A stretch of 64,000 bases of DNA. Source: an archaeon. Its GTDB lineage: Archaea > Asgardarchaeota > Thorarchaeia > Thorarchaeales > Thorarchaeaceae. The notes under the pieces were generated by a model. That model made no database searches, was not told the origin of the DNA, and saw only the letters and a program-made list of their open reading frames with translations. Of this stretch, positions 3,592-16,187 are shown in pieces. Numbering within the stretch: position 1 is the stretch's first letter; the number at the start of each line of letters is the position of its first letter. Location of the stretch: NCBI GenBank assembly GCA_024276825.1, contig JAJRWI010000004.1, forward strand, positions 1 through 64,000. The letters run 5' to 3'. The position numbers and the translations under genes were made by a program.

Positions 3592-4195
3592 TTATGGATC
3601 ATATGGACCTTTTATCAGTTTCTTGATCAGTCTGAGAAGAAACGAAATCTCATTATTGGTCAAGTGTTCTAATGACTTCTCCAACTGTGTTAATGCTTCT
3701 GATTTGAAGGCGGTATATACCGTTCATTGTAAGTTGGACATTCTTGGACATCAGAGTCCAGTCCTTCCTGGAACGGCACAGGACTGCTTTTCTCCTGTAT
3801 ATGTCACACAATTTAAGCTCCTACATTTTTCAAGGGTTCTATCAAACATTTATTTGAAGAGTGTCCAAGTTTGTCCCATTTCTCAGCATCTGTGCACAAC
3901 CCTTCTTCCTCTTACAGTCATCTTAATTAAGATTCGCTGTCTGTCATCCTTCCACTTACTTCGAATGACATATTTCCTATCAACTAGCCTATCAACAAGA
4001 CCAGCGGCTGTGCTTGGGGGCATTGAAAATGTAGCAGTAATATCTTTCATTGAACAGCTTTCAGACTCAAATATTAGATTAAGAATCATGAATTCTTTAC
4101 GAGTAATCTTTGGAGATCCCAAAATGCCACTTTACCTTGCTTAACCGTCTAAGTGACTCGACAAGCTCATAAGTGAGTTCCTGGCGGGACTTCAT
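3592..4195 (-). pseudogene. MarR-family regulator pseudogene (paralog of 15765-16187)
   Basis: MKSRQELTYELVESLRRLSKVKW, then +1 frameshift near 4125, ...MTVRGRRV / 180-bp insertion / YTAFKSEALTQLEKSLEHLTNNEI; collinear with the intact copy. Confidence 0.9.
3720..3901 (-). mobile_element. Non-autonomous mini-element, copy A (GG-bounded)
   Basis: Removing 180 bp restores the MarR codons AGG GTA TAT; ends GGTTGTGCACAGATGC...TTACAATGAACGG; homologous to copies B and C. Confidence 0.85.
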
Positions 4196-4262
4196 TTCAT
4201 CTCATTATTCCTCTCTCGTTGAATGATATAGACCTATCGCATGGATATATTTCTATGTCGAA

Positions 4263-4280
4263 TATTTCGTATACGAAATA
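4263..4280. promoter_or_regulatory. Candidate MarR operator (pseudogene copy)
   Basis: Perfect palindrome TATTTCGTATACGAAATA; equivalent to 15665-15682. Confidence 0.6.
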
Positions 4281-4310
4281 ACAATATATGGGTTGATGGG
4301 GGTCTTGACC

Positions 4311-4406
4311 ATGAGCGTTCTATTGACTGGAGCATTTGGAAATGTGCGCGAGAGTGCAGTTCTCCCTTTTCTTAAAAGCGAACAAGAACTGGTGTGTTTT
4401 GACTTG
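4311..4406 (+). pseudogene. 5' fragment of NAD-dependent epimerase/SDR (paralog of 14653-15639)
   Basis: MSVLLTGAFGNVRESAVLPFLKSEQELVCFD vs MRVLLTGAFGNVGESAVISFLGSEHQLRCFD; similarity stops after ~32 codons. Confidence 0.85.
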
Positions 4407-4419
4407 CTTGTGAGTTATG

Positions 4420-4491
4420 TCCTCTCTCAATCACCCCCTCTAATGACTTTGCCAATTTATCAAAGCTGAAATCATTGGGGCCATCTGACAT
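4420..4491 (-). pseudogene. Truncated N-terminus of an unknown gene family (copy 1)
   Basis: GGTGA RBS then MSDGPNDFSFDKLAKSLEGVIERG; matches 12990-13060. Confidence 0.6.
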
Positions 4492-4559
4492 GGCAATCAC
4501 CAACGAAACAATCTAAATTCTCAGTGGTTAACAAACATACATTGGTATTTTCAGGTTTT

Positions 4560-5828
4560 CTATTGATTAGGCGTTTTCGGAATGACTACTTGGAGTTTAT
4601 CCAATATTTCCCTGCTGAATCTTCGTGCGTCTTCTGAACTCATTTGCTTCAGAAGATGCGCGTAATAGATTGAATCTAGCACTTCAGGCCTCTCAATTAC
4701 AATTGATCTGGTTTTCATACTGACAAGTCCTAACATGATGGTGCCTACTAGTTTAAGTACAATCGCAAAAACGAGTCCGCCAGCTATTGAGAGAATTATC
4801 CCTCCACAGAATAGAACAAGAATAATTGCCAGAGTTGCAGACCAGTATGTGCGAAGCCCCCTCTTCAAATCCTTAATGACAAGGAATACAGTCAAACTCA
4901 AAATAATTGCCAACAAGAATGAGAGAGTGATTATTAGATTGAGATCTGTTGTAGGTAGCGACCCATATGTTGAATATCCATAGTCCATAAACGCACTAGT
5001 GATGAGAAGTATTATTGTCTTGGCCCACATTACAGAGGTTTCACGATTGAATACTTGTATCTCAAGTCTGGAATTGGGCATTCGTGATAAATCTGCAAAT
5101 GGCCATCTCAGGATATTGTGTCCCACAAGATGGGCACGAACCGCAACTATCTGTCCTTCCAATCGAATAAAACTAGGATGAAACCTACGTACGCACTCGC
5201 GACCAAGCCCAATAAAACATAACCCATGAATCATTGCAATTACAAAAGACGCGCCAAGAATCAAGATGTAGATTTGGCTGGCACCTTCTGGAAATAGGTC
5301 TAGTCCCCAGACAATCGTTGATTCAAGAATTATTCCCAGTCCAATCGATAGTAAGAGCCATATTGACAAACTCAACATCAGCCAGATTCCCAGACTACGA
5401 GGTCTATCTCTGAGTAGCCAATACATTGGTAGATCAATTGTCATTATTATTAGGGTGCCTATGAATAGTGAGATTGGTACCAGGATATAGCCAGTCAGGA
5501 TGAAAACAAGTCCCCCTTGCAGAGAAACAAATGCACTAAGAAGACTATTCCAAGGGTTTCCAGATAGAGTGATTCCTGTAGAACTATTTTGAAATGAGGC
5601 AACCATAATAGATGTGGAAGCCGCAAGAAGAGCAAGGCGAATCGCAATCAGCACTCTCCCTTTGGCTTCTCCAATGAGTGAAAGCAGTGTCTTCAGTCTC
5701 GGAATGCCAATATGAGAAATGATGAAACCAGTTGTCGGCTGCGGCAATGGAATATCATGTTCATTCATTACATCTTCGAGTTGATCAATGATTGTTTCTT
5801 GTTCAAACTGACTTGCCGAGTCCATCAT
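4560..5828 (-). CDS. Multi-pass membrane protein, possible immunity partner of the upstream secreted protein
   Basis: 422 aa, about 9-10 hydrophobic segments, 16 bp downstream of 5845-6975. Confidence 0.55.
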   Translation of the reverse strand: MMDSASQFEQETIIDQLEDVMNEHDIPLPQPTTGFIISHIGIPRLKTLLSLIGEAKGRVLIAIRLALLAASTSIMVASFQNSSTGITLSGNPWNSLLSAFVSLQGGLVFILTGYILVPISLFIGTLIIMTIDLPMYWLLRDRPRSLGIWLMLSLSIWLLLSIGLGIILESTIVWGLDLFPEGASQIYILILGASFVIAMIHGLCFIGLGRECVRRFHPSFIRLEGQIVAVRAHLVGHNILRWPFADLSRMPNSRLEIQVFNRETSVMWAKTIILLITSAFMDYGYSTYGSLPTTDLNLIITLSFLLAIILSLTVFLVIKDLKRGLRTYWSATLAIILVLFCGGIILSIAGGLVFAIVLKLVGTIMLGLVSMKTRSIVIERPEVLDSIYYAHLLKQMSSEDARRFSREILDKLQVVIPKTPNQ

Positions 5829-5844
5829 CTCTCACCATGTTGAT

Positions 5845-6975
5845 TTACATTCCAACAAAGATTCTGCCATAGATACTATCTGAATCAGCCATGTCATTGA
5901 GCATATTGCTTACAAGACTCACCATTCCAATGATCATTATTATCAATGACACAAGTTTTGCAACACCCATCAGAACCGCTTCTGCTGAACTAAGTATTTG
6001 TACGTACCATGGAGCACATCTTATTATTGCGTAGACCACTGACCCCATTGTCGAGATTAGTTTTGATGCCACTGTCAATGGCGAGAGAGTCCCACTACAT
6101 GCACCACTCATGAATACTACAAAGCCTAGAAGGACAGACAAGAATTTCATTGCAGCGGCAAACACCACCATCGTAGATTGAGGACTGAGTGTCCCTCTCC
6201 ATATTGCAAAAGATGTAGATAATGCACTGACCATGAAAATTGCCGCATCAATGCCAAACCATGCCTTTTCTGTGGCTGACCAATATAGATTGTCAGCTTC
6301 AGCCATGCCACCATTTAGCTCTTGAACTCGTTCATATGCACTGATTAGCGTTTGTCTTGAGTCAGTGAGAAGCCATGCAACAAACAAGCCCTCAAGTTTC
6401 GCATCAACAGGTCCATCAAATCCCAGAGCTTCTTCATAAGAGACAAAATCATTAACTTTTGCTGAGTCGTATGCTAAAATGATGTCACTTGATGGCGTAG
6501 TTCTAATCCTACTTGTAAACTCTTGCCATGACAAAATCTCATCGTTAGCAAGAATTCCCATTTCAGATCCATGTGACACCCAAGCAACATGACCCATTAC
6601 TCTATGAATGATCAATGCATAATCCAAAGCTCCATAATCCACAATGCGAAGTCTGCGTGCATTTTCCCTAATTGCCTGAACTGCATTGAGAACAGATTTA
6701 TCATTATGCATAACGACAACGACATCTGAGATTACTGGTGTTGACAACGGCATCAGCCATACCGGCGATATTGCCAATAGCGCAATTAGCAAGGAGCAAA
6801 TCTTCAACTTCTCATTACTGCATGAAAAAGACACTACACTAAATAGCGATCCACTCTTTTTCATACTGCCTAGTTTTTCCCCTTTATTCACGCGATACCT
6901 CTCCCAAGATTCGTTAGTTATAGATAATTTGAAAATAAATTTAGCGACTAATTTCTGAAAAAGATCTATTATCAT
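5845..6975 (-). CDS. Secreted protein with caspase-hemoglobinase-like domain and hydrophobic C-terminal domain (true start probably downstream)
   Basis: Signal-like segment, SHGS...IILAYDS...GFDGPVDA pattern, ~140 aa hydrophobic helical tail. Confidence 0.5.
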   Translation of the reverse strand: MIIDLFQKLVAKFIFKLSITNESWERYRVNKGEKLGSMKKSGSLFSVVSFSCSNEKLKICSLLIALLAISPVWLMPLSTPVISDVVVVMHNDKSVLNAVQAIRENARRLRIVDYGALDYALIIHRVMGHVAWVSHGSEMGILANDEILSWQEFTSRIRTTPSSDIILAYDSAKVNDFVSYEEALGFDGPVDAKLEGLFVAWLLTDSRQTLISAYERVQELNGGMAEADNLYWSATEKAWFGIDAAIFMVSALSTSFAIWRGTLSPQSTMVVFAAAMKFLSVLLGFVVFMSGACSGTLSPLTVASKLISTMGSVVYAIIRCAPWYVQILSSAEAVLMGVAKLVSLIIMIIGMVSLVSNMLNDMADSDSIYGRIFVGM

Positions 6976-7249
6976 CTGAACTGAATCTCACTCAATATCC
7001 TCAGATTCCGACTGACAGTCTTGAAAAACTTCTATAGTATCACTATTCTAGCTACACTTGCATGTTCATTGCGGGGATTACGTTATGGGCTCAATTGCAA
7101 GCTAAATAACAACAATCAAGACTCGCTCTTTAAGAAGCATTAATTAGCGAGAGCCCTTCATATTGATGTGAGTTGAAGAAAGCGCACCAACATGTCTTGA
7201 TACCACAAGGCTTCGTAGCAGTGAATGGCACTCAATCGAGGGATAGAAC

Positions 7250-9013
7250 TTGATGCTTTATGAAGAACTAGCACTTGCTTACGACAAAATAGAGAACACT
7301 TCTGGCACTCTTGATAAAATCGACATCTTGACAGAGGTATTTAGAAAAGCAGATGAATCTGATATTGCAAAGATCATTGCTCTAACAACCGGAAAACTGC
7401 ATCCAGACTGGAAGGGTGAGCCTGAATTGGGAATTGCTGAGAGAATGGCAATTCAGGCGGTTTCGACTTCTGCTCTTGTGTCTGAATCTGAGATAAACAA
7501 GCTACTCCAAAAACTTGGTGATATTGGAGCAGTAGCAGAAAAACTGCTGAGAGAATCCGGTCAGTCCACATTATTCGCTGAAGAATTGACAGTTGATTAT
7601 GTGTATGAGAAATTGAATGAGATTGCTAGTGTTTCTGGCTCTGGAAGCAGCAAGCAGAAGATAGCGCTTCTCTCTGGCTTATTGACCAATGCCTCTCCTA
7701 TTGAAGCCAGATACATTCTTCGCACAGTTACTTCGACTCTACGTCTTGGTCTTGGTGACATGGGCATTCTCGATGCACTTGCATTGGCATTTACAGGCAC
7801 TCGCGACAACCGTCCAATGATTGAGAGGGCATATAATATATGTAGTGACCTTGGTCGCATTGCGCGGGTCCTGGCCGAGAAGGGTCTTGAAGAGATAAAG
7901 AAGTTCAAGGTGGAGGTAGGTGTTCCCATAAGAATGATGGCTGCAAAGAAGCTCTCAAGCGCTAATGAGATTCTTAAAAAAGTGGGTGGCAGGTGTATCG
8001 TCGAGTACAAGTATGATGGAGAAAGACTGCAAATACACAAGAGTGATGATGATGTGATTTTATACTCAAGACGTCAAGAGCGAATAACTGATCAATACCC
8101 GGATGTTGTTGAATTAGTAAGAAGGCATGTAAAAGCCAAGTCTTGTGTGGCAGAGGCGGAATGTGTGGCCATAGACCCTGAAACTGGAACAATGCGGCCT
8201 TTTCAGGAACTTATGCGAAGACGTCGAAAAACAGACATTGAAGCAACAATGGACGAAGTGCCAGTTGCCTTGTTTTTCTTTGATATTCTCTTCCTCGATG
8301 GCGAAGACACTACTCAGAAGCCCATGCTTGAGAGAAGGGCTCTTCTTGAACAAATTATTGACACTTCTGATAGAGTTGGTCTGACCAAGGGGGAGGTGAC
8401 TGACGACCCGACTCGACTTGAGGAGATATTTCAGGATGCCATATCAACGGGACATGAGGGAGTCATTGCAAAGGCCATTCACAAGAATGCGATATATCAG
8501 GCAGGATCCAGAAGCTGGCTCTGGATCAAGCTGAAAGCGTCATACAAGGAGGGAATGACTGACTCAGTTGATCTCGTTATTGTTGGAGCATTTCATGGGC
8601 GCGGTAAGAGGGCAGGCGTCTATGGGACAATTCTTGCTGCTGCATATGATGACACAAATGATACATTTCCAACTGTCTGCAAAATTGGCACTGGTTTCAC
8701 GGATAATATGCTTGAAGATATGAAGAAACGTCTTGGGCCTCACATCATCGAGAGAAAGGATCCCAGTGTCATATCTGATATGAAGGCTGATGTATGGTTT
8801 CACCCTGTTGAGGTGATTGAGGTGCTTGGTGATGAGATCACTATCAGCCCGGTTCATCCTGCGGGAAGAGGTCGAATTCCAGGATTTGAGGGTGGCCTTG
8901 CTATAAGATTTCCAAGATTCACGGGTCGATGGCGAGATGACAAGGAGCCCACACAGGCAACTACTGTTGAGGACCTCATTGACATGTTTCTCAGCCAGAA
9001 ATCAAGGTCATAG
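7250..9013 (+). CDS. lig: ATP-dependent DNA ligase
   Basis: EYKYDGER adenylation motif, EGVIAK, WIKLK, RFPRF. Confidence 0.97.
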   Translation: MMLYEELALAYDKIENTSGTLDKIDILTEVFRKADESDIAKIIALTTGKLHPDWKGEPELGIAERMAIQAVSTSALVSESEINKLLQKLGDIGAVAEKLLRESGQSTLFAEELTVDYVYEKLNEIASVSGSGSSKQKIALLSGLLTNASPIEARYILRTVTSTLRLGLGDMGILDALALAFTGTRDNRPMIERAYNICSDLGRIARVLAEKGLEEIKKFKVEVGVPIRMMAAKKLSSANEILKKVGGRCIVEYKYDGERLQIHKSDDDVILYSRRQERITDQYPDVVELVRRHVKAKSCVAEAECVAIDPETGTMRPFQELMRRRRKTDIEATMDEVPVALFFFDILFLDGEDTTQKPMLERRALLEQIIDTSDRVGLTKGEVTDDPTRLEEIFQDAISTGHEGVIAKAIHKNAIYQAGSRSWLWIKLKASYKEGMTDSVDLVIVGAFHGRGKRAGVYGTILAAAYDDTNDTFPTVCKIGTGFTDNMLEDMKKRLGPHIIERKDPSVISDMKADVWFHPVEVIEVLGDEITISPVHPAGRGRIPGFEGGLAIRFPRFTGRWRDDKEPTQATTVEDLIDMFLSQKSRS

Positions 9014-9071
9014 TGTTTCCGACAATTTTAACACAAAGCGGATTCCCATCTGCTATAGCCCGGTGAGTCAT

Positions 9072-9557
9072 ATGCATAGTATTAGAATCGCAGATCCTAA
9101 GGCGCACTTCAGTGTGGCCCATTTTGTCTGGAGCTCTGGAAAACTGGAGCCTCTCCACGGTCATAATTACACAGTTAGTATCGAAATATATGGGACTCTT
9201 AATGACTTTGGCATGGTCATGGACTTTAGGACAGTCAAGGAACAACTTCGCAGAGTGTGCAAGGTCCTAGATCATAAGATTCTACTCCCAGGTGAATCAA
9301 CAATAATCAGACTTAGAGATCTTGATGATGCAATTGAGATCAGGGCAGAGAATAAGCGATATTTGTTTCCAAAGGAGGACTGCCTGATTCTTCCAATTAC
9401 TGCATCCACCGCGGAGCTTATTTCTGAGTTCATTGCCGGGCAATTGGACATTCCTGAAGCATTTAGACTCAAAGTGTGTGTGAGCGAATCGCAGGGAATG
9501 GAAGGCTGCTTTGAGAGAGAAAATAAAAAACAACGAGGCGAAACTATTGGTCATTGA
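9072..9557 (+). CDS. 6-pyruvoyl-tetrahydropterin synthase/QueD-like protein
   Basis: FSVAHF, LHGHNY, MDF, LDHK motifs; start placed at ATG 9072. Confidence 0.85.
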   Translation: MHSIRIADPKAHFSVAHFVWSSGKLEPLHGHNYTVSIEIYGTLNDFGMVMDFRTVKEQLRRVCKVLDHKILLPGESTIIRLRDLDDAIEIRAENKRYLFPKEDCLILPITASTAELISEFIAGQLDIPEAFRLKVCVSESQGMEGCFERENKKQRGETIGH

Positions 9558-10377
9558 CACTCAAAACTCGCGACCCAAATATCAGATACGACTACAGAAG
9601 GTCGGTATTCGTGGACTAAAGACCTTCTTCATAACCGAAAAGGGCGGTCTTAGACATCATTACATTCCCACTGTTGAACTCACCATCGATCTACCTGCAG
9701 ATATTAAAGGAATCCACATGTCTCGACTCGTTGAGAGCATGACTGAAATAATCACTGATCAGTTCAGTGTCCACCCCTCTGTTGAAGAACTGCAGATTCG
9801 CATACTTGAGGCCTTGGCTGAAAAGCATAACTGTGAACAGGGCGAGATTAAGTTTGAGTTTGAGTTTGGATACCAGAGTCACACACCAGTTTCAAATAAA
9901 CGGACCTGGGAGGTGTGTGACGTTGTTGCTTCTACAATAATTGAGAAAGACAAGCCAATCATTCACGATATCAAGATCAGTGTGATTGGAAATACCGTGT
10001 GCCCACATTGCATGGTAAATAACAATGGTCTCACCCATATGCAGAGAGCAATCGGAGCCCTAAGAGTTGTAGGAACAACCGATCAGATTCCGAATTATGG
10101 TGATATGATCAAGATAATTGAAGACTCATTCTCAAGCAAAACTTACTCTATCCTCAAGCTCGAGGATGAGATGCATGTCACAAAAGAGATGCATGACAAT
10201 CCCTTGTTTGTTGAAGATGTCTGTAGAAACATCCTGCAAAATGCTAAAGAAAGGTTCAAAGATAGAGACCTGGAGATTTGCGCTGAGGCACAGTCTCTGG
10301 AGAGTATTCATAAACATGATGTGATTGCTCAAGGCATGCTAGAACTCAGGGGGAATAACAATCACTCACATGGTTAA
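9511..10377 (+). CDS. mptA: GTP cyclohydrolase MptA/FolE2 family
   Basis: KGIHMSR, CPH, HMQR, NPLFVED, ESIHKHD motifs. Confidence 0.9.
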   Translation: MREKIKNNEAKLLVIDTQNSRPKYQIRLQKVGIRGLKTFFITEKGGLRHHYIPTVELTIDLPADIKGIHMSRLVESMTEIITDQFSVHPSVEELQIRILEALAEKHNCEQGEIKFEFEFGYQSHTPVSNKRTWEVCDVVASTIIEKDKPIIHDIKISVIGNTVCPHCMVNNNGLTHMQRAIGALRVVGTTDQIPNYGDMIKIIEDSFSSKTYSILKLEDEMHVTKEMHDNPLFVEDVCRNILQNAKERFKDRDLEICAEAQSLESIHKHDVIAQGMLELRGNNNHSHG

Positions 10378-10474
10378 TCTGCACAGAACCTGTGAATTAT
10401 GATGATAATAAGACTCGAAATTATAAATGTCTGTTCTCCTGACAGAACCATGATGCATGCATGAGATAGGTGAA

Positions 10475-10954
10475 TCATTGGGCAGTCCATTTGTGAAAAT
10501 GAATTCCTTTCCAAAAATGAATGATCTTTGGTGTTATTTCGATTACAACTCTAGAGCCCATAGGGAATCCAACCTTGAGGAAAGTCAAATACTTCTGCCA
10601 GTATTGATTCATTAACACATCTCCCATTTCCTCTATCTTGATGACTCTTGCAGTGCCACGTATCAAGACCCCGCAATTGCCCTCAGGTGAAATGGGATCT
10701 CTCTCGTCGATGGTTAGCGCCACATTAGGATTTTGTCTGATGTTTTGTAGTTTTTTTGTTGAGCGGGAAGTGATGACATAGAACTTGTTAGGCTCTTCAT
10801 CCCAGATATAAAACATCGTGGTAATGTGTGGTGGGGCACCAATTTCTCCAGTGGTGAAATAGGCAAAGAAGCCATCTCTTATGATTCTAGCCGCTTTGGG
10901 ATGAAGTAGGTTTGCACTCCTTTTTTGTCTATGTTTGGAACAAGTTTCACTCAT
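10475..10954 (-). CDS. Pyridoxamine 5'-phosphate oxidase-like (split-barrel flavin/F420) protein
   Basis: PHITTM, SRSTKKLQNIRQNPNVALTID, GVLIRGTA. Confidence 0.8.
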   Translation of the reverse strand: MSETCSKHRQKRSANLLHPKAARIIRDGFFAYFTTGEIGAPPHITTMFYIWDEEPNKFYVITSRSTKKLQNIRQNPNVALTIDERDPISPEGNCGVLIRGTARVIKIEEMGDVLMNQYWQKYLTFLKVGFPMGSRVVIEITPKIIHFWKGIHFHKWTAQ

Positions 10955-10958
10955 GATC

Positions 10959-12227
10959 TCACACTCTCAGGAATGTTGGGGCTGCCTTTCTCCAATATAT
11001 TGCACTCTTTACTTGAAGTCTGACAACAACTCTTGAAACAAACGGTTTTTCCTTCCATGCAAGTGGAATTGATTCTGCTTGTTCTTTGTAGTATCTCAAA
11101 TACATCGGATATTTCCTTCTAAAGAGTGAGCGAACACGAAGCAGCCAAAGCCCGTATATGAGCAACCTAGCTATACCAAAAGGACTGAACTGACCAAGAA
11201 TGAGTCCCTTCCCTCTCAATAAGACGGACCTATTATTCATTGGATTCTTGGAATCTCGCATATCAACCAGCACTGCAATGCTATTATTCTTCTTGATGAG
11301 TCTGTATTTCGCTGACTTCACGCTTATTGCAAAGTAGATGTATTTTCCATCATAGACAAAGATTACTGGAGTTGTATGCACTGTTTTCTTGTCATAGACA
11401 GCAACATATGCGAAACGTTCCTGAAAAAGTATATTTTCAACGTCTGGTGGAAACCACGGAATTGTTTCCATTGAGAGCAAGCTAATAAATGATAAGACAA
11501 GAATGGACCCGAAGAAAGCGATAATACTAAAGAATAGCAATTGAGATGAAAGAGCGATTGGGAGAAGAAGTATTGCAGAGCCGGCCCAATAGAGATTGAT
11601 GATGTCCAGCGATATTAGTGTTTGAACCTCCGAATAGGCAGTGTACTTCAGTCCTCTTCTTTCCTTGGCAGCACGAGCAAGAGCTATTGACCGACGAGCC
11701 GCCGAGAAAGTAGTGAAGAAAGATAACCAGAGTCTATATGCTATATCCCAAGAGAGGATAAGAATTAAAGCATACAAAAAGAGATTACCGTACCCCTGTC
11801 CAAGAAATCGCTGCAGAAGGTCCTGATCATAGATTAGGTACGATGAGATTCCGATAAAGCAGGCAATGCTTCCTATCAGCTCAATCATCTTATTTTCTAA
11901 GAGATTTTGCTTATAGCTTCTAAGAATCATTAATTCTTTCTCATTAGTGGGATTCTTAAGTTTCCTAAGGAGGGGAATGACATACAAACAGCCAGCAGAC
12001 CAGATTACAGTATACAAGATTGCTAGAGACCCAAAAATGAGTGATTCGGTTGGCATTTGAAAGTACAAGAATGCAAATATTCCAATGGTTTCTACAAGCA
12101 TCAACTGCGCCAGAATATCCAATCTGGGCGGTAACCATTTGAACGGAGGGACATTCTCAACAATCTGCTCATAAAGCCAACGGTCTTCAATCGGTCTTTC
12201 GCTAGGCATATCAACAAGTATTGGCAA
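10959..12227 (-). CDS. Membrane domain fused to a C-terminal PNPOx-like split-barrel domain
   Basis: About six TM segments then HTTPVIFVYD...SAKYRLIKKN..IAVLVD..VLLRG. Confidence 0.7.
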   Translation of the reverse strand: MPILVDMPSERPIEDRWLYEQIVENVPPFKWLPPRLDILAQLMLVETIGIFAFLYFQMPTESLIFGSLAILYTVIWSAGCLYVIPLLRKLKNPTNEKELMILRSYKQNLLENKMIELIGSIACFIGISSYLIYDQDLLQRFLGQGYGNLFLYALILILSWDIAYRLWLSFFTTFSAARRSIALARAAKERRGLKYTAYSEVQTLISLDIINLYWAGSAILLLPIALSSQLLFFSIIAFFGSILVLSFISLLSMETIPWFPPDVENILFQERFAYVAVYDKKTVHTTPVIFVYDGKYIYFAISVKSAKYRLIKKNNSIAVLVDMRDSKNPMNNRSVLLRGKGLILGQFSPFGIARLLIYGLWLLRVRSLFRRKYPMYLRYYKEQAESIPLAWKEKPFVSRVVVRLQVKSAIYWRKAAPTFLRV

Positions 12228-12251
12228 TCTTGTCTTATTTGGTTATCTGTA

Positions 12252-12439
12252 CCACTCATTCTTAGCTCAATAGAGTTAGATATGCAGGTCTTACCCGCAC
12301 AGGAACCTCACTGGACCCGCTCGACACATGGTGTCCGACAGAACTATCTGAACTCACTACTATTTTTATCCAATTCGCTTTAGATCTTCTTTTTATTGCT
12401 ATTCGAGATCATCCAACCTCTACGCATCTCCGCGAAACC
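12252..12439 (-). mobile_element. Non-autonomous mini-element, copy C (most diverged)
   Basis: GGTTTCGCGGAGATGCGTAGAGGTTGGA...CAATAAAAAGAAGATCTAA...GTCCAGTGAGGTTCCTG...AAGAATGAGTGG, collinear with copy B. Confidence 0.75.
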
Positions 12440-12989
12440 CCTCTCCCCTAAACTTCTCATGGAACACTATTACGACCCCCCTGTAGAATGCCCTAATTTG
12501 CCCTGAAACATCGCATTTTTGCAGTGATACTAGCATGTTCTCAATATATTATCCCAGTGATATTAAGATAAGGTCTTCATTTTACCAAACCTTATATGGG
12601 AATTCAGTGGAAATAGAGGTGGGTTATATCACACATTCAAAATATAATGGAGAATTAAAGAATTGACCGAAAAATCCAGACCTCTCTCAACCCTGCAAAA
12701 GAAAGCTAAGATCCTGCATGTACTATACGGACTGCTCGAGAGCGACCGTGACCCTACAGATGAAGATGCTCAAAGTCTGCGATATCTCTATGCCAGCTCA
12801 TAATTATGCTCATCATTAGATGAGGTCATTCTTCTGTTCTCATGTCCCTCCCGGCGCGAGACGGAGGAAAAGTGAGGGCCGATTCCCCCTATGGCCCTCA
12901 CACCAACATCATGTCCTCTTTTAACAGTAATTTTGATTAGCCACGACATTAATGCCAGTTTGATAGAACTGCAGAGAGAGTTGGCCATT

Positions 12990-13060
12990 ATGAGTGAGAA
13001 TCCAGATGATTTTAGCTTTGATAATCTATCACGGAAACTGGAGGGTGCAATCGAACAGGG
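12990..13060 (+). pseudogene. Truncated N-terminus of an unknown gene family (copy 2), interrupted by element copy B
   Basis: MSENPDDFSFDNLSRKLEGAIEQG; matches 4420-4491. Confidence 0.6.
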
Positions 13061-13245
13061 TTGCGGGTAGATGCGCAGAGGTTGGACAAACTTGACACCA
13101 ATAAAAAGGACATCTAAGAGATATACTACAAAATTGTTAGGAGTTTAAATAGTATCATCAGGAACAATGGCGTGAAATGTGTCCACTGCTGTTCGTGGGC
13201 GGACAGGACTATAATGTCCAAGATCGTCCAATTTACAATGAACGG
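13059..13245 (+). mobile_element. Non-autonomous mini-element, copy B
   Basis: GGTTGCGGGTAGATGCGCAGAGGTTGGACAAACTTG...TGTCCAAGATCGTCCAATTTACAATGAACGG; homologous to copy A along its full length. Confidence 0.85.
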
Positions 13246-13270
13246 CATATCCGATAAACTAGTAAATGGT

Positions 13271-13630
13271 ATGATGAACGAACTTGAGCAGGATTATTTT
13301 GAAACCATCAAGCGAGCTAGGACTGCAATTGTGATGTTCTATAGAACTGCATGTTCGTATTGTAAGAGGCTGCGACCAGTCCATGAGGACTTTGCTGATG
13401 AGTTTGAATCATCAGTCTTTTTCACTACTGTGAACATTGATCTTGTAGATGAAGCTCGCATAAAGAACAACATCCTAGGAGTGCCGCTGGTAATCGCATT
13501 TAAGAAAGGAATGTCTGTAGATAGTGTCGAGGGACTTCGTTCAGCAGAAGAGTATCACAAGTGGATTGACCAGATTAGAAAGGGTCTAAGACCAATGCGT
13601 TTAGACCATGGTCAGGCAACCAAGTTATAA
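13271..13630 (+). CDS. Thioredoxin-family protein
   Basis: MFY..ACSYCK CxxC motif, GVP cis-Pro; the upstream part of ORF 13172 lies within element B. Confidence 0.85.
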   Translation: MMNELEQDYFETIKRARTAIVMFYRTACSYCKRLRPVHEDFADEFESSVFFTTVNIDLVDEARIKNNILGVPLVIAFKKGMSVDSVEGLRSAEEYHKWIDQIRKGLRPMRLDHGQATKL

Positions 13631-15764: not shown

Positions 15765-16187
15765 ATGAAGACCAGGCAAGAACTCACCTACGAACTAATC
15801 GAGTCGTTAAGACGTCTGAGCAAGGTGAAGTGGTTTCTAGGCTCCTCAAAACTCACTCTTGAGGAGTTCATGGTTCTCGACCTTATCTACGAGTCTGAGA
15901 ATTGTTCTATGAAAGACATCACGACTACTTTCTCAATGCCCCCAAGTACTGCCACAGGCCTTGTGGATCGACTTGTTGAAAGAAAGTATGTCACACGTAG
16001 CAAGTCCAAAGATGACAGAAGACGAATTCTCATCAAGATGACTACAAAGGGCAAGAGGGTATATACAACTTTCAAGTCTGAAGCACTGGCTCAACTGGAA
16101 GAATCATTGAGTCATTTGTCTAATAACGAGATTGCAACTCTTCTTAAACTAATAAACAAGTTGATTGATGGACTTCACGAATCGTAA
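15765..16187 (+). CDS. MarR-family transcriptional regulator
   Basis: STATGLVDRLVERKYVTR..DDRR wHTH motif; start inferred from the paralog. Confidence 0.9.
   Translation: MKTRQELTYELIESLRRLSKVKWFLGSSKLTLEEFMVLDLIYESENCSMKDITTTFSMPPSTATGLVDRLVERKYVTRSKSKDDRRRILIKMTTKGKRVYTTFKSEALAQLEESLSHLSNNEIATLLKLINKLIDGLHES

Follow-up and report, generated by a model that had tools for sequence, protein, structure and literature searches.

The window analysed here is a 64,000-nucleotide stretch of an Asgard archaeal genome (Thorarchaeaceae; GenBank assembly GCA_024276825.1, contig JAJRWI010000004.1, positions 1 to 64,000 of the forward strand), in which three copies (A, B, and C) of a short, GG-bounded repeat were recognized. 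These repeats are very probably gene-less miniature derivatives of an insertion sequence (IS) of the IS607 family, active in Thorarchaeota, that carries a serine-recombinase gene (tnpA) and an RNA-guided-nuclease gene (tnpB). Both ends of the miniature are, by alignment, homologous to the ends of IS607-type parent elements. In the alignment of the family consensus with the parents, miniature positions 1-73 correspond to the parent left end up to the ATG of tnpA and include two TTGGACA motifs, and positions 103-188 correspond to the last ~86 bp of the parent, from the 'ARNI' codons of TnpB to the boundary, and include two inverted TGTCCAA motifs. The sequences form a decay series that leads from parents of 2.6-3.2 kb through deletion forms of 570-730 bp to miniatures of ~188 bp.

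Copy number, boundaries, and target site

A family profile was built from the three window copies and used with nhmmer to search the window's own assembly (2.94 Mb in 82 contigs, 98.3% complete). The search returned 61 matches, of which 33 span the full length (158-190 bp) and share sharp boundaries; copies A, B, and C were the only matches inside the window, and their E-values (1e-26 to 4e-51) are far beyond chance. The initial annotation, made from the window alone, had described the three copies with the coordinates and strands given below and had suggested that others be sought elsewhere in the genome; full-length alignment of all three agrees with that description, and the genome-wide matches supply the additional copies. 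The copies and their internal features are as follows.

3720..3901 (-): copy A, 182 bp including both GG dinucleotides, inside a MarR-family gene
12252..12439 (-): copy B, intergenic (188 bp); the gene at 10959-12227 follows 25 bp downstream
13059..13245 (+): copy C, 187 bp, inside a thioredoxin-like gene, in its conserved N-terminal region
3862..3878 (-): motif pair in the left end of copy A, TGGGACA-AAC-TTGGACA, with a period of 10 bp and with like motifs in the parent left ends
3734..3750 (-): motif pair in the right end of copy A, TGTCCAA-GAA-TGTCCAA, opposite in orientation to the left pair and found also in the parent right ends
13175..13245 (+): right-end module of copy C, with homology to the terminal ~70-86 bp of the parent (final tnpB codons to GG)

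The left boundary of the family reads GG-TTGCGCGTAGATGC and the right boundary ACAATGAAC-GG, and the family consensus begins with GGTTGCGCGTAGATGC and ends with TTTACAATGAACGG. The left ends of the window copies are GGTTGTGCACAGATGC (A), GGTTTCGCGGAGATGC (B), and GGTTGCGGGTAGATGC (C), and the right ends are AATGAACGG in A and C and AATGAGTGG in B. The end motifs originally proposed, GG-TT(G/T)...AGATGC and AATGA(AC/GT)-GG, are present in all three copies, and, as had also been stated, no terminal inverted repeat (TIR) accompanies them; a TIR is absent from the family as a whole, the two ends being GGTTGCGCG... and ...AATGAACGG. In the interior of the left end TTGGACA occurs twice with a 10-bp period, and in the interior of the right end TGTCCAA occurs twice, inverted, with the same period. 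Arrays of this kind had been claimed for copies A and B: the array is clear in A, and in C as well, but is degenerate in B. By analogy with characterized elements, the motif pairs of copy A are presumed to be TnpA binding sites. The right-end module of copy C holds CCAG..CTGG and GGAC..GTCC hairpins, which putatively belong to the 3' end of an omega RNA. A TATA-box-like sequence, TTTAAATA, is conserved at model positions 87-94 (in copy C, window 13144-13151), and homology of the miniature to the parent right end resumes ~25 bp downstream of it. This sequence is a candidate for a possible internal promoter, but the copies show no orientation bias towards downstream genes.

Pairwise identity between miniature copies ranges from 47 to 99%. 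Copy A is 96% identical to copies on contigs C14 and C73 and belongs to a young subfamily whose members are 96-99% identical; copy C, with 86% identity to its nearest copy, is of intermediate age; and copy B is the most decayed of the three, its nearest relative being 64% identical and its end motifs degenerate. The wide range within the family, taken together with the near-identity of the copy A subfamily, indicates that the family has moved over a long period and also recently.

The target site was deduced from the flanks of the 33 full copies. The base 5' of the left GG is G in 28 of them, and the base 3' of the right GG is T in 25 and C in the other 8 and is never a purine; the target is thus G-GG-Y. 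On contig C33 (117213-117571) one miniature is nested within another in the opposite orientation, and the consensus TG-CCC-AG is represented in the interrupted copy by TG-CC, the inner element, and CC-CAG. The gain is the element plus two core bases, and the consensus-based empty site is CTG-GG-CAC. A further empty site was found in the window, among the genes listed here.

3592..4195 (-): MarR-family pseudogene, exons 3902-4195 and 3592-3719, split by copy A
15771..16187 (+): intact MarR paralogue with the empty site, G-GG-T at 16057-16060
12990..13630 (+): thioredoxin-like gene, split by copy C into 12990-13058 and 13246-13630

The intact MarR paralogue is 75% identical to the interrupted gene and lies 12 kb away from it. 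After removal of 180 bp (copy A with one GG), the interrupted gene aligns without gaps with the paralogue, in which the DNA at the insertion point reads AAGAG-GG-TATATAC. The flank logo, the nested copy, and this paralogous empty site together establish exact insertion at the GG of G-GG-Y without duplication beyond the core, and uphold the GG-core insertion that had been proposed for copy A. It had also been held that excision of copy A with one GG restores the MarR gene exactly. The frame does become collinear with that of the paralogue, but a separate 1-nt frameshift (an insertion relative to the paralogue) remains near 4115-4130 (-), where KVKWHFGI... stands against KVKWFLGSS...; this frameshift is possibly a sequencing error. 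Given the two lesions, the insertion of copy A and the frameshift, the interrupted MarR gene is regarded as a pseudogene.

Coding sequence in the window is broken by copies A and C only. At the protein level, the orthologues of the thioredoxin-like gene in five related genomes are uninterrupted across the insertion point of copy C; in two genomes of the same genus, DNA identity amounts to only 65-68% and synteny does not extend to the thioredoxin-like gene. A 152-aa frame (window 13172-13630, +) has a GTG start within copy C and runs on past the right end into the thioredoxin-like gene without a change of frame. The thioredoxin domain may therefore still be produced, either with an exchanged N-terminus or by initiation at the internal methionines of MMNEL.

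IS607-type parent elements

Left-end and right-end matches of the family were paired over longer distances, which yielded two larger forms in this genome, both on contig C81; one of them contains an IS110-family element and is described with the alternative explanations. The other (C81:166258-166825, 568 bp) matches the family model over positions 1-65 at its left end and over positions 120-188 at its right end and has, between them, a 136-aa frame composed of a MerR-type helix-turn-helix (HTH), the start of a serine recombinase (YARVSS), and the zinc-ribbon tail of tnpB, which ends in HADVNAARNI and continues into the right end. The NCBIfam model NF033518 ('IS607 family transposase', cut-off 110 bits) matches it at profile positions 2-107. 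Judged from its sequence, this form is an internally deleted remnant of the parent that keeps the N-terminus of TnpA and the last codons of tnpB.

Full-length elements of 2.6-3.2 kb, with tnpA, tnpB, and the ends of the family, were found in other Thorarchaeota metagenome-assembled genomes (MAGs). The 3.2-kb element at L071 3927-7119 combines a homologous left end with a TnpA of 200 aa (160 bits with NF033518), a 504-aa TnpB, and a right end reading ...ACTTACAATGAACGG and followed by T; a 320-aa antisense frame (L071 4606-5568, -) occupies the gap between its tnpA and tnpB. A 2.6-kb element with homologous ends is present in G011; its tnpB frame (L045 1102-3240, -) is unusually long, with 712 aa, and only the last ~240 aa match TnpB models. 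In G022 a homologous left end is followed by an intact 206-aa TnpA (195 bits with NF033518), in which Pfam places MerR/HTH_17 at residues 1-48 and Resolvase at residues 65-191; L085 contains a 730-bp deletion form. The TnpBs of the parents score 73-75 bits with the NCBIfam model guided_TnpB, below its cut-off of 100. Matches to PF07282 abut the right end in C81, G011, G004, and L071, so that the 3' end of the accessory gene tnpB overlaps the right end of the element. Right-end matches of the family were obtained in 17 of the 24 genomes searched from the same taxonomic family; the 16 genomes searched outside it gave none.

By its sequence the parent has all of the IS607 features that could be tested, namely a serine recombinase with a MerR-like HTH, GG at both junctions, short repeated end motifs in place of a TIR, and a tnpB gene whose 3' end overlaps the right end. 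The initial annotation had noted that no transposase is encoded in the window and had suggested a MITE-like derivative of an IS607-like element, mobilized in trans, as well as a search for longer tnpA/tnpB elements with the same ends; such elements exist (the C81 remnant, the L071 and G011 elements, and the TnpA of G022), and the suggested derivation is supported by the ends that the remnant and the full-length elements have in common with the miniatures.

Other traces of IS607 or TnpB genes were noted in the genome. A second, unrelated IS607-derived mini-family is present at C47:1-420, C36:1-420, and C28:81800-82400, with decayed MerR-HTH frames (GVS(A/T)STL.RWE ... VYAR(V/A)SS). The weak HTH matches at these three loci were considered as the TnpA of the family described here and were rejected, as they belong to that second, decayed family. 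Two of its copies are located at contig ends and have an identical terminal stretch of ~120 bp, which suggests assembly breaks caused by the repeat. The only full TnpB-like zinc-ribbon match of the genome (C24:46463-46615) is in a 560-aa open frame; this frame has no detectable relation (tblastn, 1e-3) to the TnpB of the present family, and no miniature end is nearby.

Alternative explanations and mobility

Derivation of the miniatures from an IS110/IS1111 element, moved by its DEDD recombinase under the guidance of a bridge/seek RNA, was the alternative named in the initial annotation and is extremely unlikely. It could draw on the second larger form on C81 (172799-174510), in which left-end and right-end matches of the family enclose a 450-aa transposase of the IS110 family (235 bits with the NCBIfam model IS110). 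The transposase, however, belongs to a 1521-bp IS110-family element, the only one in the genome, that is inserted within a miniature at model position 30-32; its own ends (AGATATGAGTGTGCAAT... and ...ATTGCACACATAGA) are unrelated to those of the family, and a normal miniature is restored when it is taken out. A second miniature, on C36, carries a 324-bp 5' fragment of this element at the identical position, and the ends of the miniatures are homologous to IS607 ends instead. An IS110/IS1111 parent was accordingly rejected: the element is nested in a miniature, its ends differ, and its DEDD recombinase is not itself bordered by the family ends. The element occupies C81:172958-174478 (= L031 8959-10479) and has the sub-terminal inverted repeats GTGTGCAAT/ATTGCACAC; the fragment (C36:16104-16427) is 94% identical to it. 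In both miniature copies, which are different ones, the insertion point is between the two TTGGACA motifs, and the recurrence of one position in two miniatures suggests that the IS110 element may target the IS607 left-end motif site-specifically.

Two further explanations concern RNA. Each of the three window copies has the orientation of the gene that it interrupts or precedes, as would be expected if they were introns removed from transcripts, an explanation with next to no probability. Genome-wide, 25 copies are co-oriented with the gene downstream of the right end and 27 are opposite to it. Genes were called by codon usage, a crude method that leaves 14% of the genome non-coding; most copies lie in this non-coding fraction, and the flanks of most are without an open frame. 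In addition, the interrupted MarR gene carries its further frameshift, folding energies of the copies are ordinary (z about -1), RNAalifold found essentially no consensus structure in either 44 right ends or whole copies, and an Rfam scan of two copies, the remnant, and one full-length parent gave no match at E <= 1. The intron idea was rejected on the orientation count and the mostly intergenic siting, and an outward promoter favoured by selection was rejected because the same count is unbiased. It is quite unlikely, though less remote, that the copies, besides their role as transposons, are stand-alone omega-RNA genes whose right ends guide a TnpB in trans into the flanking DNA. Stand-alone omega RNAs that act in trans are known for OMEGA systems (PMC10691335; PMC10055086), and the right ~86 bp of the miniature are the part of the parent that overlaps the 3' end of tnpB, where omega RNAs lie. 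The closing pair of the CCAG..CTGG hairpin covaries (UA to CG in 4 sequences; 14 parents and relatives), and for the 3'-terminal 144 nt of the G011 element the folding z-score is -3.2. Against this, the miniature keeps only the last ~86 bp of the parent, and the ~100 nt of the conserved 3' region that lie further upstream, among them the stretch for which pairing with the right end is predicted, are missing from it; the miniatures have no conserved fold and decay freely to their present range of identities; and no cognate TnpB was found in this genome.

For gene-less IS607 derivatives, mobility would depend on a TnpA supplied in trans. IS607-type TnpA has a strict GG requirement and a TGGG target preference, needs short inverted end motifs for excision, and acts through a double-stranded circular intermediate with a precise donor joint (bioRxiv 10.1101/2023.11.20.567912). 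The features described above fit this published behaviour, from which we infer the following steps for the miniatures. TnpA would bind the sub-terminal TTGGACA and TGTCCAA motifs, synapse both ends, and exchange strands at the flanking GG dinucleotides. The miniature would then be excised as a double-stranded circle with the junction ...AATGAAC-GG-TTGCGCG..., and recombination of this circle with the GG of a G-GG-Y target would leave the element flanked by GG on each side without further duplication. Binding of TnpA to the motifs, the circular intermediate, and the source of TnpA are in this scheme drawn by analogy.

Several points weigh against an origin and movement of this kind. A search of the assembly (82 contigs, 98.3% complete) for an intact TnpA or cognate TnpB yielded nothing beyond the C81 remnant, and tblastn with two parent TnpBs against this genome returned the C81 tail only; trans-mobilization in this organism is thus unproven, and the copies could now be immobile. 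Some 30 bp in the middle of the miniature have no identified source, and from the sequence a GG core looks the same as the adjacent 2-bp register (e.g. G-G of GGG). It is decidedly unlikely, on the other side, that the miniatures are still mobile by means of a TnpA that is unassembled or on another replicon, with right ends transcribed into omega-RNA-like guides for a TnpB in trans, in which case the ~60 copies would constitute a dispersed guide set as well as a transposon family.

Significance and comparison with known systems

The boundaries, the G-GG-Y target, the nested insertion, and the empty site constitute a sequence-level record of IS607-type GG-core transposition in an Asgard archaeon, and the decay of IS607 elements from parents to miniatures is made visible. 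For annotation, it becomes possible to mask and name ~60 loci of this genome, along with many others in related MAGs, and the interruption of two genes (MarR and thioredoxin-like) is accounted for. The miniatures are also of note as the target of the RNA-guided IS110 element found in this genome. The known mechanism of transposition is unchanged by these results. The initial annotation had called the family new: this holds in that it is an undescribed member, but the kind of element, an ordinary non-autonomous transposon, is well supported and already known. Text searches with partial coverage of the literature, which are not proof of novelty, found no description of an IS607-derived miniature family in archaea.

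Classical prokaryotic miniature inverted-repeat transposable elements (MITEs), such as SM1-SM4 of Sulfolobus, are short, non-coding, multi-copy, mostly intergenic deletion derivatives of an IS and need its transposase. The present family is likewise short (158-190 bp), non-coding, multi-copy (61 matches), mostly intergenic, and dependent on a parent, and its ends are common to an autonomous IS. Unlike classical MITEs, it has neither a TIR nor a true target-site duplication, only the GG core being repeated, and the copies are therefore best termed non-autonomous miniatures that are MITE-like only in size, copy number, and parent dependence.

Gene-less derivatives of elements of the sister group IS200/IS605 (PATEs) keep the transposon ends and the guide-RNA scaffold (PMC10055086; PMC10691335). 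Like PATEs and stand-alone omega RNAs, the miniatures are protein-less, retain both ends including the one that overlaps the guide scaffold, would be mobilized in trans, and occur in many copies. PATEs differ in their Y1 tyrosine transposase, single-strand hairpin ends, and TAM/TEM cleavage rule, whereas the enzyme that goes with the family described here is a serine recombinase with double-stranded GG cores as its substrate, and only the terminal part of the scaffold is kept.

A close resemblance exists to IS607 of H. pylori and the IS607-type IStron of Clostridium botulinum (Zedaveinyte et al., bioRxiv 10.1101/2023.11.20.567912). As in those elements, the parent carries tnpB next to a gene for a small serine recombinase that has a MerR-like HTH at its N-terminus; GG is found at both junctions with a G-rich base before the core (TGGG as published, nGGG here); a TIR and any duplication beyond the core are absent; and short inverted motifs of 6-7 bp lie inside the ends. 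In contrast to them, the window copies encode nothing (158-190 bp), the family numbers ~60 copies in an Asgard archaeal host, T or C is additionally preferred after the core, and the TnpB is divergent (below the NCBIfam cut-off) and long, with frames of 504-712 aa.

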